In this document: in pieces, positions 17-7,347 of the stretch
Layout: each line of letters starts with the position of its first letter
Position numbering within the stretch: the first letter of the stretch is position 1
Assembly (NCBI GenBank): GCA_017398545.1
Contig: JAFQFT010000048.1
Location: 2,418 to 66,417 of the forward strand
Origin: Bacilli bacterium
GTDB lineage: Bacteria > Bacillota_I > Bacilli_A > ML615J-28 > CAG-313
Direction: 5' to 3'
Length of the DNA: 64,000 nt
The notes under the pieces: generated by a model
Told to the model about the DNA's origin: nothing
The model's input: only the letters and a program-made list of their open reading frames with translations
The model's database searches: none
Program-made: the position numbers and the translations under genes

Positions 17-1732
17 ATGAGAAAGAAAATAATGAAAAGAAAAGAAACTATTAATAATATATTTGGAGTAATTGTTAGTTTCTTTATTATAGTTGGATTC
101 TTTGTAATAATGTATTTCTTATCACAATCTATTATTAACATGTTTAGTCTATTAATAAACGTAGTTAAATCAAGTAATGGTTTAGATAAATTTATTACAC
201 CATTTGCCATTTTGTTATATATATTATGTATAATTTTACTTAGTATATATGTTATAGATTTATTCCTAATATTAATCGCTAACTTCTTAGGACCAGTAAT
301 TAAACTAAAAGATCAAGATAAACATCGTAAAATATTTACATTTACAATTACTGGATTTATTGAAGATAAATGCAAACATCAAAAAGTTCAACCAAAACTA
401 CTTGTTTCATTTATTGTTCTATTAATTATTTGTATGTGTGTGAGTTATTCAACAGGTGGTTATTTTAAAAAGAGTTTAAATGATACTCCAAGTCATTTAA
501 ACACGTTAACATTTGAAGATAATTTTACTGATATCGTTATTAAAGGATATAATGGAAATATTAATTTTAAATCTACAGATAGTAATACATTAATATTAGA
601 ACATCAATATGAGTTTGAACACAATCTAAATCTTACAATTGAAAATAATACACTTAATATTAATCTTGAAATGACTAAATCATATGATGTATTTAATTTG
701 TTAAATGAACCAACACAAAATTTAATTATTTATATTCCTAATAGTTTTATAAATAAGAACATATTAATTGAAATGGATAAAAGTATTATTGATATTTCAG
801 ATATTAATAATGTTAGTAATGTAGATTTAACTGTTGATACAAAAGGTACAATTAGTCTTGTTAATTCTAAAGTATCTAACTTAAATGTAAAAGGATATGA
901 AATAAACCTAGCTATAGCGAAATCAAGTATAAATGATAATACATATATTGAAACATCTAAAGGTCAAACACTAGTTCAACAAGAAAGTAATTTAAATAAC
1001 GTAGAACTTATTAATAATTCTAGTTATATTAAGTTTGAAAATAGTACTATTCAAAATTTAAAAATTGAAAATGCATCTGGAACAATTGAAATTATCAAAA
1101 TGACTGGAACAACACTTGATGTAAAATCAAGACAATCAGTTAATACATATGAAGACTCTGAATATGATAATATTAAATTAAATGTCTCTAACTCATCTAA
1201 ACTTACCCTTACTAGAATACTAAGTAATAATATAGATATAGTTTTAGATAACTCACAACTTTTATTAAACTATGTAAAAGGTAATACAAAAGTAAACGCA
1301 ACTTCTGGCACTGTATATTTATCTGGTGTAGGTGAAAATCACGATTTAGCTAGTCAAAATTACAATAGTGAAATTGTAACAAATGTAAAAATATATAATA
1401 AAGGTAGTGCTTGTAAAATAGAAGCAGTTGATTCTAAAATAAATGATTTATTAGTAAATCAAGAAGGTGGTTTTATTAATATTAGTAAATCTACTATTAT
1501 TACAGGTTCAATCACCGCAACAAACACAGAAACAATTGACTTATTAGATTTAAAAGGTAGTCAAATAGATTTATTCATATCTAATTTAAAACAAACTTTT
1601 ATTATTGATGCAGAACAAAATACTGGTATGAAATATGTTATTAAAACAATTGATACACTTTCTTTCGCAAGACTTTTTGCAGATGAAGAAACTGTAACAG
1701 TGATTAACGAGGCGGCAAATGCAAATGAATAG
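17..1732 (+). CDS. membrane-anchored beta-strand-repeat protein (DUF4097 / putative-adhesin-like)
   Basis: 571-aa ORF. N-terminal hydrophobic helices (IFGVIVSFFIIVGFFVIMYF, AILLYILCIILLSIYVIDLFLILIANF, LLVSFIVLLIICMCV) are followed by an N/S/T/I-rich series of short strands with recurring SG-T-[IV] turns (ENASGTIEI, NATSGTVYL), as in DUF4097-type repeats. The start could also be ATG 32. Confidence 0.5.
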   Translation: MRKKIMKRKETINNIFGVIVSFFIIVGFFVIMYFLSQSIINMFSLLINVVKSSNGLDKFITPFAILLYILCIILLSIYVIDLFLILIANFLGPVIKLKDQDKHRKIFTFTITGFIEDKCKHQKVQPKLLVSFIVLLIICMCVSYSTGGYFKKSLNDTPSHLNTLTFEDNFTDIVIKGYNGNINFKSTDSNTLILEHQYEFEHNLNLTIENNTLNINLEMTKSYDVFNLLNEPTQNLIIYIPNSFINKNILIEMDKSIIDISDINNVSNVDLTVDTKGTISLVNSKVSNLNVKGYEINLAIAKSSINDNTYIETSKGQTLVQQESNLNNVELINNSSYIKFENSTIQNLKIENASGTIEIIKMTGTTLDVKSRQSVNTYEDSEYDNIKLNVSNSSKLTLTRILSNNIDIVLDNSQLLLNYVKGNTKVNATSGTVYLSGVGENHDLASQNYNSEIVTNVKIYNKGSACKIEAVDSKINDLLVNQEGGFINISKSTIITGSITATNTETIDLLDLKGSQIDLFISNLKQTFIIDAEQNTGMKYVIKTIDTLSFARLFADEETVTVINEAANANE

Positions 1733-2454: not shown

Positions 2455-3363
2455 CTATTTATTGTTATTAATATAATTTACTGCATTCATTGCAGCTACT
2501 GCTCCATCACCTACTGCTGTTGTAAGTTGACGAACATGTTTAGTTCTACAGTCACCTGCAACATATATACCTGGTGTTTTAGTTGTTGTATCGGTTGATA
2601 AGATATATCCTTTATCATCAAGATCAACTAAGTTTTTATATCTTTCATTATTGGGAACTTGTCCTATTGCAATAAAGCATGCATCTACATTAAAGATTAC
2701 TTCTTTGCTTGTTTTTGTACTTTCAAATTTTAAACCAGTTAATTCTTCTTTATATAAGAATTCTTTTAATGATATTTCTTTAGTAACGATGATATTTTCT
2801 TTTTCTTTTAGTCTATCAACTAATGTTTGATCAGCAAAGAATTTATCAAATAACATACATAAATATACTTTATTACATATATCTGATAACATTAAAGTAT
2901 ATTGAAGTGCTGTATTTGCGTCTCCAATTACTGCAACATCTTTTCCCTTATAGAATGCACCATCACAAACAGCACAGTATGATACACCTTTACCAATTAA
3001 TTCTTCTTCATGTGGAATATTAATTGTTCTATGTTTTACACCTGCTGCAATAATAACTGATTTTGCAAGATAAGTGTTGTAGTCTGTAATTACTGTAAAA
3101 CAATCATTTTCTTGTTTAATTTCTAAAACATCTTCACATTCAAATTCAACACCTAGTTCCATAATTTGTTCAAACATATTGTTTGAAAGTTCAAGTCCTG
3201 AAATTTCTTTAATTGATGGAAAGTTTTCTACTTTAGGACTTGATGCTATTTGACCACCAAATGATTCTTTTTCAAATATTTTAACTGTTTTTCCACTTCT
3301 TTTAGCGTAAAGAGCAGCTGTCATTCCAGCTGCCCCTCCGCCAATTACGATAATATCAATCAT
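2455..3363 (-). CDS. thioredoxin-reductase-like flavoprotein lacking the canonical NADPH-binding motifs
   Basis: 302 aa. FAD motif GGGAAGMTAA and redox-active CAVCDG are present. The second dinucleotide motif reads VIGDANTA instead of GGGNSA, and the HRRxxFRA motif is replaced by MLFDKFFA. Its start lies 6 nt after the nrdD stop. Confidence 0.75.
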   Translation of the reverse strand: MIDIIVIGGGAAGMTAALYAKRSGKTVKIFEKESFGGQIASSPKVENFPSIKEISGLELSNNMFEQIMELGVEFECEDVLEIKQENDCFTVITDYNTYLAKSVIIAAGVKHRTINIPHEEELIGKGVSYCAVCDGAFYKGKDVAVIGDANTALQYTLMLSDICNKVYLCMLFDKFFADQTLVDRLKEKENIIVTKEISLKEFLYKEELTGLKFESTKTSKEVIFNVDACFIAIGQVPNNERYKNLVDLDDKGYILSTDTTTKTPGIYVAGDCRTKHVRQLTTAVGDGAVAAMNAVNYINNNK

Positions 3364-3369
3364 AATTAA

Positions 3370-5727
3370 TTATCTACTTTCTATATATTGTTTAATAAAG
3401 CTAACGTTTTCAAATACGTCATATCCACCCATCTTAGGTACAAGTAATGTTGGAGCTTTTTTAATATTGAATTTATTTACTAAATCAACATTATCTTCTG
3501 CATCAATAGTTGTATATTCAACACCTGCTTTGTCTAAAAGCATTTTAGCCATTTTACAATTTGGACAAGTTTTAGTAGTAAATAGAAGGATTTTATCAAG
3601 ACTTACACTTTGAGTTTGAGTTTCTTCTTTAACCATTTCTTTTTCAGTAAATACTGATGTAGATAAGTTATAAACTTTGCGGTGTTTAAATTCTTGAGCT
3701 TTACCATCATTCCAGTTTTGAACAGGACGGTAATATCCAGTGATTCTACTATAAACTTCAGTTTTCTTACCACAAATTGGACAAGTAAATGCTTCACCAT
3801 CAATATATCCATGTTCAGAACATACTGAATATGTTGGGGAAATTGAGTAGTAAGGAAGTTTGTAGTTTTCTGCAATCTTTCTAACTAAATTAGCACATGC
3901 TTGCCATGAAGGCATTCTTTGACCAAGATATGTATGGAATACAGTACCTGATGTATATAATGTTTGTAATTCATCTTGGATGTCTAGTGCAGTAAAGACA
4001 TCTTCAGTAAAACTAACAGGTAGATGAGAACTGTTAGTATAATAAGGAGTTTCATCCTCTTTTGATGCGGTAATAATATCAGGGTAACGTTTCTTATCAT
4101 GTTTTGCAAGACGATATGATGTAGATTCAGCAGGAGTTGCTTCTAAGTTATATAAGTCACCATATAGTTCTTGATAATCAGATAATTTGTTACGCATGAA
4201 GTTAAGAACATTTTTAGTAAATTCTTGACCTTCTTTAGTTGTTAAGTCTTTTCTTAACCATTTAGCATTTAAACAAGCTTCATTCATACCAACAAGACCG
4301 ATTGTTGAGAAGTGGTTATCAAATGTTCCTAAATAACGTTGTGTATATGGATATAATCCTAAGTTTAATAATTTTGTAATAATATTTCTCTTGATCTTTA
4401 AACTTCTTGCAGAAATGTTCATTAATTTTTCTAGACGTTTGTAGAAGTCTTCTTCATCAGTAGCTAAGTATGCAAGACGTGGCATATTAAGTGTTACAAC
4501 ACCAACTGAACCAGTTGATTCACCAGAACCAAAGAAACCACCTGATTTTTTACGAAGTTCTCTTAGGTCAAGACGAAGTCTACAACACATACTTCTAACA
4601 TCACTTGGTTCCATATCTGAGTTGATATAGTTAGAGAAGTATGGAGTACCGTATTTAGCAGTCATTTCAAATAATAATTTATTATTTTCTGTTTCTGACC
4701 AGTCAAAATCTTTTGTGATAGAATAAGTTGGAATTGGATATTGGAAACCACGTCCATTAGCATCACCTTCAATCATAATTTCGATGAATGCTTTATTAAC
4801 CATTGCCATTTCTTTAGCACAGTCTTTATATTTAAAATCCATTTCTTTTCCACCAACGATTGCGTTAAGTTCTGCTAAATCGTTAGGAACTACCCAGTCA
4901 AGAGTGATATTTGTAAATGGAGCTTGAGTCCCCCATCTACTTGGTGTATTAACACCATAAATAAATGATTGAATACATTGTTTAGTTTCTTTGTATGTTA
5001 AATTATCTACTTTAACAAATGGTGCAAGATATGTATCAAAAGATGAAAATGCTTGTGCACCAGCCCATTCATTTTGCATGATACCTAAGAAGTTTGTCAT
5101 TTGGTTACATAAAGTTGAAAGGTGAGATGCAGGTTTAGAAGTAATCTTACCAGGTACACCACCAAGTCCTTCAGTAATTAATTGTTTTAAACTCCATCCA
5201 GCGCAATAACCTGTAAGCATTGATAAGTCATGAATATGAATATCTGCATCACGATGTGCTTTTTCAATTTCTTGGTCATAAATTTCAGATAACCAGTAGT
5301 TAGCTGTAATAGCACCAGAGTTTGAAAGAATTAATCCACCTACTGAATATGTTACTGTTGAGTTTTCTTTAACACGCCAGTCACTAATTTTTAAGTAGTT
5401 GTTAATTGTATCTTTATAGTCAAGGAAGGTAGAACTCATATTTCTAATGTTTTCATGTTGCTTACGATATAAAATATATGATTTAGCTACATCAACATAA
5501 CTTGTTTGAATTAATACAATTTCAACTGTATCTTGAATTTCCTCTACTGAAATAACATCATCAATAATTTTATCATTAAAAGTAGCAGTAACTTTTAATG
5601 CAAGAAGTTCAATGATGTCTTTTGAATAATTTTTATTTACAGATTCAAATGCTTTTGCAATCGCATTCTCAATTTTGGTGATATCAAAATCAACGATGTT
5701 ACCATCACGCTTTTTAACTTTAATCAT
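3370..5727 (-). CDS. nrdD: anaerobic (class III) ribonucleoside-triphosphate reductase with N-terminal ATP-cone and C-terminal glutaredoxin/thioredoxin-like domain
   Basis: 785 aa. Domains in order: ATP-cone start (MIKVKKRDGNIVDFDITKIENAI), finger-loop motif RSMCCRLRLD, Zn-ribbon cysteines (CSEHGY...CPICG), glycyl-radical motif SRITGYYRP. An extra linker of about 100 aa and a redoxin fold follow, with CPNC encoded at nt 3556-3567 (LLFTTKTCPNCKMAKMLLDKAGVEY). GGAGGG RBS. Confidence 0.92.
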   Translation of the reverse strand: MIKVKKRDGNIVDFDITKIENAIAKAFESVNKNYSKDIIELLALKVTATFNDKIIDDVISVEEIQDTVEIVLIQTSYVDVAKSYILYRKQHENIRNMSSTFLDYKDTINNYLKISDWRVKENSTVTYSVGGLILSNSGAITANYWLSEIYDQEIEKAHRDADIHIHDLSMLTGYCAGWSLKQLITEGLGGVPGKITSKPASHLSTLCNQMTNFLGIMQNEWAGAQAFSSFDTYLAPFVKVDNLTYKETKQCIQSFIYGVNTPSRWGTQAPFTNITLDWVVPNDLAELNAIVGGKEMDFKYKDCAKEMAMVNKAFIEIMIEGDANGRGFQYPIPTYSITKDFDWSETENNKLLFEMTAKYGTPYFSNYINSDMEPSDVRSMCCRLRLDLRELRKKSGGFFGSGESTGSVGVVTLNMPRLAYLATDEEDFYKRLEKLMNISARSLKIKRNIITKLLNLGLYPYTQRYLGTFDNHFSTIGLVGMNEACLNAKWLRKDLTTKEGQEFTKNVLNFMRNKLSDYQELYGDLYNLEATPAESTSYRLAKHDKKRYPDIITASKEDETPYYTNSSHLPVSFTEDVFTALDIQDELQTLYTSGTVFHTYLGQRMPSWQACANLVRKIAENYKLPYYSISPTYSVCSEHGYIDGEAFTCPICGKKTEVYSRITGYYRPVQNWNDGKAQEFKHRKVYNLSTSVFTEKEMVKEETQTQSVSLDKILLFTTKTCPNCKMAKMLLDKAGVEYTTIDAEDNVDLVNKFNIKKAPTLLVPKMGGYDVFENVSFIKQYIESR

Positions 5728-5943: not shown

Positions 5944-7347
5944 TTATTTTTTTAAAATATCTTCACCAGGAATACCCGGTATAACTAATTTTGCTAAATC
6001 TAGAATCTTATTTAATTGTTCTTCTGAAACTAATCCTTTAGATAAGATTACTTCTTTAATTGGGATCTTAGTATTAATAGATTCTTCAACTATTTCACAA
6101 GCAGCATCATAACCAATGTGACTTGATAATGCGGTAATAATACTAGTTGAATTATTTACATTACCCAAACAAGCATCAGCATTAACAGTAAGACCTGTAA
6201 TAGCTAGTTCATTAAATGTTCTTACTGCATGACGAGTGTTTGTAAGTTGTTCAAACATTGCCATAATAATTACTGGTAAAAATGGATTAAGTTCAAGTTG
6301 TCCTGCTTCAACAGCATTAGTAATTGTAACATCTAAGCCCATTACATAGAATGAAACTTGGTTAACTACTTCTGGAACAACTGGATTAAACTTACCAGGT
6401 ATGATTGATGATCCTTGTTGAACACGGGGTAAATTAATTTCATTAATATGAGTGGATGCCATAAATCTTAAGTCGCTTGCCATTTTAGATAAGTTAAGTG
6501 CAAGTCCTTTGATCATGCTTGAGGCATATGCAAAGCAATCTAGATTACAAGTTATATCAATTAAATCTTTAGCAGGTTTTAGGTTTTCACCAGAGTATTT
6601 AGCAATTAGAGGTACAACTTTTTTAATATACTTTGGAGTAGCATTGATACCAGTACCAATTGCTGTTCCTCCCATGTTAATTTCGCTTAATGCTTCGATT
6701 GCAGATTCTAATCTTTTTAGATCTCTCCCTATTACATTTGCATAAGATTTGAATTCTTGACCAAGTGTCATAGGAACTGCTTCTTGAAGATGTGTTCTAC
6801 CCATTTTTATAACATCTTTAAATTCAAATGCTTTGTCATTAAGAACGTTTTGTAGTTTTTTAACCTCAACAATTAACTTTTTAATTTGTTTTGTTATCGC
6901 AATTTTCCCTGCTGTTTGAATTACATCATTTGTTGATTGACATTTATTAACATGATCAATTGGATGAACATATTCATATTTTCCTTTTTTACCACCAAGG
7001 ATTTCATTTGCTCTATTCGCAATTACTTCATTTGCGTTCATGTTGATACTAGTTCCAGCGCCACCTTGAATCAAATCTGTAATAAATTGTCCATGTAGAC
7101 GTCCGTTTAATATTTCTTCACATGCAAGCATAATGGCATTAGATACTTCTTCAGTTATTAAGTCAGCTTCTGCGTTAGCTTTTGCTGCACCTTTTTTTAC
7201 ATAAGCTAAAGCTTTTATCATTTGTCTTGGTATTCCTCGTTTAGTAATATCAAAGTTATTTTTTGATCTTAATGTGTTAATTCCGTAGTATGCTTCTTGA
7301 GGAATTTTTATTTCTCCGATAGCATCTTTTTCAGTACGATACTTCAT
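5944..7347 (-). CDS. aspA: aspartate ammonia-lyase
   Basis: 467 aa. Fumarate-lyase signature [20 protein letters not shown] (the NPVVPE form is aspartase-like). The N-terminus [28 protein letters not shown] matches the AspA pattern. Confidence 0.85.

Follow-up and report, generated by a model that had tools for sequence, protein, structure and literature searches.

The nrdD locus and its fused redoxin domain

We analysed a 64,000-nucleotide stretch of DNA (the window) from a Bacilli bacterium of the GTDB lineage Bacillota_I; Bacilli_A; ML615J-28; CAG-313 (GenBank assembly GCA_017398545.1, contig JAFQFT010000048.1), in which a class III ribonucleotide reductase (RNR), NrdD, is extended at its C-terminus by a redoxin domain and is encoded next to a flavoprotein resembling thioredoxin reductase (TrxR). 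The fusion gene, nrdD::redoxin, occupies positions 3370-5727 of the minus strand and encodes 785 residues (P0001), its coordinates being confirmed by translation, and the TrxR-like gene (2455-3363, minus strand; P0002) encodes 302; both were recognised as open reading frames (ORFs) with profile matches. A third gene, nrdG, lies on the plus strand at 1719-2414, where it converges on the nrdD operon from outside, and encodes a radical SAM activase of the NrdG2 type (TIGR02495, 209 bits against a cut-off of 131).

Only 6 nt separate the stop codon (TAA) of nrdD from the start of the TrxR-like gene. Upstream of nrdD, a site reading TTGAAA-17 nt-TATAAT (5817-5789, minus strand), the best in the region with 11 of 12 consensus matches, is the putative promoter, and an AGGAGGG ribosome-binding site stands between it and the nrdD ATG at 5727. 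At the other end, a 16-bp hairpin flanked on both sides by A and T runs (2415-2454, both strands) would act as a bidirectional terminator serving both the nrdD-trxR operon and the convergent nrdG. Co-transcription of nrdD with the TrxR-like gene is supported by the single predicted promoter, the 6-nt gap and the single predicted terminator. The G+C content at the locus is 22-33%.

The NrdD portion of the protein is conventional in its layout. An ATP-cone, the allosteric on/off domain, spans residues 2-92 (5452-5724, minus strand; PF03477, E 2.2e-22) and is followed by the class III catalytic core with the glycyl-radical domain at residues 121-686 (3670-5367, minus strand), where PF13597 (NRDD) matches over model positions 1-562 of 562 with an E value of 1.4e-190. 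Full-length NrdD profiles score far above their cut-offs (NF006126, 1143.1 bits vs. 548; TIGR02487, 522.4 vs. 326), and the glycyl-radical motif SRITGYY (residues 660-666; 3730-3750, minus strand) is preceded by a four-Cys zinc ribbon (CPxC...CPxC, given also as CSEH...CPIC). On these profiles, the glycyl-radical motif and the presence of nrdG, the 785-residue protein is classed as a class III RNR.

An earlier note on this DNA had proposed that a redoxin domain is fused behind SRITGYY, and had named failure of the extension to model as a thioredoxin fold as the outcome that would speak against it. The proposal held on every count. The frame continues through a linker of ~25 residues (687-711; 3595-3669, minus strand; delimited by alignment and model) into a glutaredoxin-like thioredoxin-fold domain (residues 712-785; 3373-3594, minus strand; delimited by PF00462, model and Foldseek) that carries a CPNC motif at residues 721-724 (3556-3567, minus strand; from the translation). 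PF00462 (Glutaredoxin) matches residues 713-748 with 35.5 bits, above its gathering score of 22.9. When residues 641-785 were aligned with their counterparts from the genomes of 56 related species (57 sequences), the zinc ribbon and glycyl loop were almost invariant, the linker columns were unconserved and rich in insertions and deletions, with length and sequence varying across homologues, and after the linker there followed a well-conserved domain of ~75 residues, in which the C, P, N and C of the motif are the same in all 57, as are a single Ala and the Pro of an APT loop. The last of these stands where thioredoxin folds have their cis-Pro. With this alignment as input, AlphaFold2 returned a beta-alpha-beta-alpha-beta-beta-alpha domain with a pLDDT of 95-98, which Foldseek matched to thioredoxins in the PDB with a probability of 1.00. 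As modelled, the extension has the fold, the CxxC and the cis-Pro loop of a real thioredoxin-fold domain.

The linker, for which the pLDDT was 58-80, is probably a flexible tether, and we estimate that, when extended, its ~25 residues would span roughly 80 Å, enough to reach the catalytic barrel. Several homologues (e.g. L022:4779-5240 and L037:6921-7376) have a linker rich in Cys and His, with runs such as CKCDDCKCDNCEC, that could bind metal or provide extra redox sites; the linker in the window has no such runs. As to the kind of redoxin, none of the curated subfamilies compared (NrdH, Grx3, YruB, mycoredoxin) fits, the scores being 21-29 bits against cut-offs of 85-129, and CPNC differs from the canonical thioredoxin, glutaredoxin and NrdH motifs (CGPC, CPYC and CVQC).

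To place the enzyme among the known reductant subtypes, we took active-site equivalences from a HMMER alignment to the Thermotoga maritima NrdD structures 4coi and 4u3e. Cys175 (5203-5205, minus strand) corresponds to the bottom-face (beta-A) cysteine C125; the finger loop SMCCR at residues 379-383 (4579-4593, minus strand), with Met380 and the Cys381-Cys382 pair, lies opposite SCCR 328-331, so that Cys381/Cys382 align with C329/C330; and Glu529 (4141-4143, minus strand) corresponds to E495, at which position the formate-type Prevotella copri NrdD (8p23) has a Leu in the same search. In the literature, a Glu at the E495 position is the proposed proton source of thiol-dependent NrdD2 enzymes (PMC4493059, PMC9669993), NrdD2 is defined by the extra Cys and the Glu, with Met present too in some members (PMC4493059), and NrdD1 enzymes are described as having a single-Cys MGCR loop with the third Cys and the Glu absent (PMC4493059, PMC9669993). 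The methanogen NrdD3 type has a QCCR/A loop and neither Met nor Glu (PMC9669993). Since both the extra Cys and Glu529 are present, the window enzyme is by its residues assigned to the thiol-dependent NrdD2 type, with the Met also present. A formate-dependent NrdD1 assignment is ruled out by Cys381 and Glu529 despite Met380, and an NrdD3 assignment by the Met of the SMCCR loop together with Glu529.

This alignment to typed enzymes thus reads what the earlier note had considered unreadable by eye, namely the reductant class. The note had also flagged the SMCC loop as ambiguous; it is in fact no oddity, as 83% of double-Cys class III RNRs have an MCCR loop (Burnim et al., PMC9669993) and SMCCR is the commonest double-Cys finger loop (PMC9669993).

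Spread of the fusion and linkage to the flavoprotein gene

A word-indexed protein search with residues 640-785 as query yielded upwards of 120 clusters formed at 90% identity, each of ~788 residues, with full query coverage and with both PF00462 and PF13597. Most of these clusters come from gut and rumen metagenomes, and their annotation is just 'ribonucleoside triphosphate reductase'. A collection holding a single genome for each species contains at least 590 stretches that code for a relative, and the locus counts given below are drawn from the best 80 of these (81 with the window). All 80, each from a different species genome, are fused, the alignment reaching residue 763-785 and in nearly all cases going beyond 776. 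One comes from a cultured Lacrimispora isolate, the others from metagenome-assembled genomes (MAGs) with the labels Bacilli, Christensenellaceae, Oscillospiraceae, Acutalibacteraceae and Lachnospiraceae. Invariant across the 81 sequences are GYCAGW (with Cys175), NLEATPAE (with Glu529), SRITGYY and CPNC, and SMCCR is found in 80.

Because these features are kept in 80-81 of the 81 species genomes, the fusion is neither a chance event nor an assembly artefact. Frameshift chimeras of such loci do exist in databases: two entries, P0126 and P0127, present themselves as NrdD-TrxR fusions and proved to be frameshift read-throughs of a high-GC copy of the operon, with the redoxin domain out of frame. 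For the window, the probability of an artefact of this kind is practically nil, given that the frame is continuous, that the same architecture recurs in all 80 best loci from independent assemblies, and that it is contradicted further by the large set of protein clusters and by the Lacrimispora isolate (L067).

A TrxR-like gene lies directly 3' of the fused nrdD in 73 of the 80 loci. Of the seven without it, one is a truncated contig and six have unrelated neighbours; at these six full-length loci no alternative reductase was found, the neighbours being a zinc ribbon, macro domain, Fic and aminotransferase. Further, when all ORFs within 5 kb were clustered across the 81 loci, the only conserved families were NrdD (81), the TrxR-like protein (72) and NrdG (64), the rest being shadow ORFs inside nrdD.

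The same linkage was seen in an even sample of 399 genomes from the GTDB phylum of the window. Here the fused type was present in 67 genomes (68-100% identity) and other NrdD-like hits in 61, with the nearest unfused relatives only 50-52% identical. Of 53 matches to the flavoprotein (E <= 1e-70), 44 are located 9-89 nt from the matched region of a fused NrdD; among them are the 43 best-scoring matches, down to an identity of 44%, and the nine that are not adjacent are the weakest (39-47%). By this genomic association, the TrxR-like gene appears to be a dedicated, fixed operon partner of the fused NrdD.

The remodelled nucleotide site of the flavoprotein

Translation of the exact coordinates agrees with the motifs and the 6-nt gap that the earlier note had reported. 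The protein carries the FAD-binding GGGAAG at residues 8-13 (3325-3342) and the redox-active CAVCDG at residues 130-135 (2959-2976), CxxCDG being common to all partner TrxRs; GDANTA at residues 147-152 (2908-2925) replaces the dinucleotide-binding GGGxxA, and CMLFDKFFA at residues 169-177 (2833-2859) replaces the HRRxxxR of the 2'-phosphate site (all on the minus strand). In the alignment to Staphylococcus aureus TrxR (4gcm), VIGDANTALQ stands opposite VIGGGDSAVE and CMLFDKFFA opposite VHRRDELRA. The TrxB equivalog profile TIGR01292 matches end to end (2-300 of 300) with 306.9 bits, below its cut-off of 343.45; of the TrxB hallmarks, the FAD GxGxxG and the CxxC are there and GxGxxA and HRRxxxR are not. 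PF00070 finds no match in the nucleotide domain, unlike in the housekeeping TrxR paralogue of the same genome. Taken from these motifs, the flavoprotein is likely to be NADPH-independent.

The earlier note took these changes as the hallmark of ferredoxin/flavodoxin-dependent enzymes. Replacement of the NADPH motifs is borne out; it is no proof of dependence on ferredoxin or flavodoxin, and the step to that hallmark fails on relationship, the protein scoring about 190-209 bits against NADPH TrxRs (209 at the top) and only 116-130 against the crystallised ferredoxin-dependent TrxRs (FFTRs) 6gna, 6gnc and 5j60, and being sister to HRR-type enzymes, as described below. With the FFTRs and the Desulfovibrio vulgaris TRi (5nii), against which together it scores 96-130 bits, it shares the TrxR fold, the FAD motif and the CxxC as well as the loss of GxGxxA and HRRxxxR. 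It has no NAD(P)H motifs, as in FFTRs, but does not group with the characterised FFTRs in sequence and, unlike FFTRs and TRi, lacks a C-terminal Trp tail. TRi enzymes carry TQ/NGK in place of HRRD (PMC5627308), whereas the window protein has LFDK as part of its own replacement signature, GD[AG]N[TS]A with LFDKFF. Finally, the substrate of FFTR and TRi is a free thioredoxin, and that of the window flavoprotein would be a domain of NrdD.

The 73 TrxR-like genes directly downstream of fused nrdD fall into three classes. Class A, the window type (about 27), has GD[AG]N[TS]A and xLFD[KR]F-F[AG]D; class B (about 29) has GGGNSA and QNLxxLTGE; and class C (12) has the canonical GGGNxA and HRRxxFR. The earlier note's question of whether a motif-less TrxR always follows the fused NrdD is therefore answered in the negative. 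Intermediate sequences occur at four loci (L012, L079, L022 and L042). Class B (e.g. L031:7459-8346; among L025-L075 and others) is an uncharacterised variant found mostly in Clostridia MAGs. In most class B and class C relatives nrdG is upstream of nrdD on the same strand.

In a maximum-likelihood tree, class A forms one clade with L012 and L079 (SH-aLRT 98) that has the HRR clade as its sister; class B stands apart, and the housekeeping and TRi-like paralogues are outgroups on long branches. The proteins at L012:7380-8225 (GGSDTA/MRR) and L079:7368-8270 (GGGNSG) are thus class A clade members with part of the ancestral site, and may represent evolutionary intermediates on the way to losing the NADPH site. 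As the window protein is sister to HRR-type, NrdD-linked TrxRs and, by bit score, far from FFTRs, its loss of the NADPH motifs appears to be independent of the FFTR lineage.

The mean pairwise identity within class A is 52%, and Asp148, Phe176 and Phe89 are nonetheless at least 90% conserved, at positions where class C conserves Gly, Arg and Lys; position 148 is D in class A and G in both other classes, and the remainder of the class A signature is 60-90% conserved. A replacement so conserved at so low an overall identity looks like selection for a new site and not decay. The NrdD tree mostly follows partner class, with 25 of the 28 class-A-linked NrdDs in one starred clade; therefore the module has mostly been inherited as a unit.

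A proposed thiol relay to NrdD and its electron donor

The host genome measures 1.83 Mb and is 88% complete, so that gene absences in it are provisional. Within it we found no class I or class II RNR large subunit, no gene resembling pyruvate formate-lyase (PFL), no Glu-Cys ligase and no flavodoxin (Flavodoxin_1, PF00258), the last being weak evidence against a flavodoxin donor at this completeness. Pyruvate:ferredoxin oxidoreductase (PFOR), as a 1184-residue open frame, and one clostridial 2x[4Fe-4S] ferredoxin are present. In the 399-genome sample, PFL (TIGR01255) occurs in 18 of the 67 fused-type genomes vs. 41 of the 61 with other NrdD-like hits, and in only four of the 44 genomes that have a close flavoprotein relative beside fused nrdD, a distribution whose direction fits a formate-independent enzyme.

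Two further TrxR paralogues are present in the host, which makes the window gene a third, specialised copy. One (C18:110228-111121; L081:1495-2415) stands in the lgt-HAD-trxB-whiA context conserved in Firmicutes, has GGGTSG and a PF00070 match, and carries CALCEG and SRSxxxK, not CAxCDG and HRRxxxR, scoring below the TIGR01292 cut-off; this copy probably serves as the general NAD(P)H enzyme. The other (C33:21375-22520; L083:1154-2334), of 279 residues, directly follows a thioredoxin gene and has GTGEYM and TNGE; among PDB entries it matches the NAD(P)H-independent D. vulgaris TRi (5nii) best, TNGE standing where TRi enzymes have TQ/NGK, and it would be a second host TrxR that probably does not use NAD(P)H. 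None of the three paralogues is a canonical TrxR.

Elsewhere around the locus, the first 14 nt of nrdG lie within the end of a 571-residue ORF (17-1732, plus strand), which has a weak DUF4097 'toastrack' match and nothing else. Upstream of nrdD, positions 5944-7347 (minus strand) encode a lyase of the class II fumarase/aspartase family (Lyase_1 and FumaraseC_C) with a terminator-like hairpin of its own (5981-5964), and this gene appears to be a separate transcription unit.

Cumulatively, we propose that nrdG, nrdD::redoxin and the TrxR-like gene form a three-gene module for thiol-driven anaerobic synthesis of deoxyribonucleotides with a flavoprotein that does not use NADPH, a reading to which we give a probability of roughly 0.6. 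In it, NrdG would place the glycyl radical on Gly664 of NrdD, and Cys175 and Cys381 would supply two reducing equivalents and end as a disulfide, with Glu529 as the proton source, as proposed for NrdD2. The tethered CPNC domain would then reduce the Cys175-Cys381 disulfide through dithiol exchange, either in cis or between the subunits of the dimer, and the CAVC dithiol and FAD of the downstream flavoprotein would in turn recharge it. The electrons of the flavoprotein would come from something other than NADPH, since the pyrophosphate and 2'-phosphate sites are replaced by different conserved residues; the most likely donor would be reduced ferredoxin from PFOR, with NADH as the main alternative. 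The electron transfers and the choice of donor are all inferred. The tethered-redoxin relay to NrdD is nevertheless well supported by the conserved residues and gene linkage, and ferredoxin is put forward tentatively. Of the 'self-contained electron wire' drawn in the earlier note, the thiol relay from flavoprotein and redoxin to NrdD survives as the best reading, and the low-potential donor at its head is a candidate. Glutathione is unlikely as a donor, because no Glu-Cys ligase was found; the redoxin also falls outside the glutaredoxin subfamilies.

Donors differ among TrxRs without the NAD(P)H motifs. Ferredoxin is the donor of the clostridial and cyanobacterial FFTRs (PMC12796991, PMC10880999), and for other motif-less enzymes F420, NADH or no identified donor has been reported, DvTRi being among those whose donor is unidentified (PMC5627308).

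A number of observations weigh against the proposed module or its ferredoxin donor. Met380, the residue that formate-type enzymes use, is retained, so that formate use is still possible, as it is for MCCR enzymes in general (PMC9669993), for which the reductant is an acknowledged open question (PMC9669993). By sequence, NADPH TrxRs are closer to the flavoprotein than is any TrxR proven to depend on ferredoxin, and sister lineages pair the same fused NrdD with canonical HRR enzymes, from which it follows that the relay needs no special donor. Since GxGxxA keeps its first Gly and its last Ala and GDGNTA is the reading in some members of the clade, binding of a nicotinamide cofactor in an altered mode is possible. 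No conserved ferredoxin, flavodoxin or rubredoxin gene lies within 5 kb of nrdD across the 81 loci, and a search for a fusion that would name the donor, among longer proteins in which a flavoprotein relative is embedded, gave nothing informative, returning just AhpF-like and OYE fusions of at most 46% identity. At 88% completeness, moreover, the absence of PFL, flavodoxin and other RNRs from the host is provisional, and the PFL contrast is confounded by shared ancestry and by some of the 'other' hits being partial.

Two explanations compete with the proposed chemistry directly, and a third combines it with formate. The relay could be as described and the flavoprotein could use a pyridine nucleotide, most likely NADH, at the remodelled site, which we consider an unlikely but serious alternative. 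The full TrxR fold is retained, including the topology of the nucleotide domain over which TIGR01292 matches, as are the Gly that opens and the Ala that closes GxGxxA, together with the Asp of HRRD, and the nearest relatives of the protein are NAD(P)H enzymes. Yet the Asp and Ala at positions 2 and 3 of the Rossmann glycine motif should disfavour binding of the pyrophosphate, NADH enzymes such as AhpF carry a Glu at the end of beta-2, where the flavoprotein has no acidic residue, and the lack of a PF00070 match points the same way. NADH-dependent TrxRs without HRR, such as T. maritima TR and D. vulgaris TR3, are known and count for this alternative; the FAD of DvTRi was not reduced by 1 mM NADH under anaerobic conditions (PMC5627308).

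Alternatively, the redoxin could serve activation or repair, keeping the zinc-ribbon or active-site cysteines reduced for NrdG or after oxidative stress, while catalysis runs on formate through Met380 and Cys175. Its position directly after the zinc-ribbon/glycyl-radical domain, the retention of Met380 in 80 of 81 sequences and the PFL found in 18 of the 67 fused-type genomes are all in keeping with this, and thioredoxin reportedly is needed to activate Escherichia coli NrdD, a finding ascribed to Padovani et al. in 2001. We nonetheless judge it improbable, more so than the use of NADH, as Cys381 and Glu529, the defining features of thiol-dependent turnover, are invariant, as 49 of the 67 fused-type genomes, the window's own included, show no PFL, and as the retention of a dedicated reductase gene at 73 of 80 loci speaks for a stoichiometric flow of electrons and not an occasional repair. 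A further rival is that both reductants, formate and the thiol relay, are used.

The separate elements of the proposed relay are already known: thiol-dependent class III RNRs, fusions of redoxins to RNR subunits and NADPH-independent TrxRs. The thioredoxin-dependent NrdD2 enzymes are exemplified by those of Neisseria bacilliformis and T. maritima (4u3e/4coi) (PMC4493059, PMC9669993). With them the window enzyme shares the glycyl-radical RNR, the bottom-face Cys, the double-Cys finger loop and the active-site Glu, as well as the expectation that electrons come from a protein dithiol recycled by a TrxR. It differs from them in that its redoxin is a C-terminal fusion and its reductase, devoid of NADPH motifs, is a dedicated partner within the operon, and from the T. 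maritima enzyme with its SCCR loop in that SMCCR keeps the Met, the overall similarity to that enzyme being low (142 bits).

The Methanosarcina barkeri NrdD3 is described, in Table 1 of PMC9176816 and in PMC9669993, as receiving electrons from an NrdH-like redoxin and a ferredoxin:disulfide reductase. The common idea is a small redoxin that feeds a class III RNR from a low-potential donor instead of NADPH. However, the M. barkeri enzyme has QCCR/A without Met or Glu, whereas the window enzyme has both, and the methanogen reductase is an iron-sulfur FTR-type protein acting with a separate redoxin, in contrast to a TrxR-fold flavoprotein and a fused redoxin in the window.

A precedent for the fusion is the class I RNR of Facklamia ignava, in which the glutaredoxin-fold domain fused to NrdB (Grx::NrdB) has been shown to be the reductant, by a dithiol mechanism (PMC6187632). 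There the fusion is N-terminal, on the radical subunit of a class I enzyme, and its CPWC domain is recharged by glutathione, whereas in the window it is C-terminal on a class III enzyme, with CPNC, a TrxR-like partner and no glutathione synthesis gene found. The same paper mentions, in one line, a single RefSeq NrdD-Grx fusion (written grx::nrdD) from Lachnospiraceae bacterium TWA4 (PMC6187632). Beyond that line, our full-text literature search found no study of an NrdD-redoxin fusion or of its partner flavoprotein.

Taking all of this together, we advance as a conjecture, doubtful as it stands, that the GD[AG]N[TS]A/LFDKFF flavoproteins are new, independently arisen, pyridine-nucleotide-independent disulfide reductases dedicated to the NrdD tail, which would couple PFOR-ferredoxin electrons to the synthesis of deoxyribonucleoside triphosphates (dNTPs) in gut Bacilli lacking PFL. 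If true, bacteria would have in them a flavin-based counterpart to the ferredoxin:disulfide reductase route of methanogens, and protein thiols would prove to be the reductant of MCCR-type class III RNRs, which make up most double-Cys enzymes.

Many strict anaerobes depend on class III RNRs as their only source of dNTPs, and the fused module is common in gut anaerobes. A large, conserved family that ties an MCCR-type NrdD to a redoxin and to a reductase of its own is a natural experiment pointing to thiol chemistry, and the module offers a convenient system of defined components for the question of which reductant MCCR enzymes use. Moreover, the three nucleotide-site variants found on the same NrdD allow a comparison of how the donor changes in enzymes of the TrxR fold. 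As no other RNR and no PFL were found in the host genome, the module probably sets the link between DNA synthesis and fermentative redox state in these abundant, uncultured gut Bacilli.

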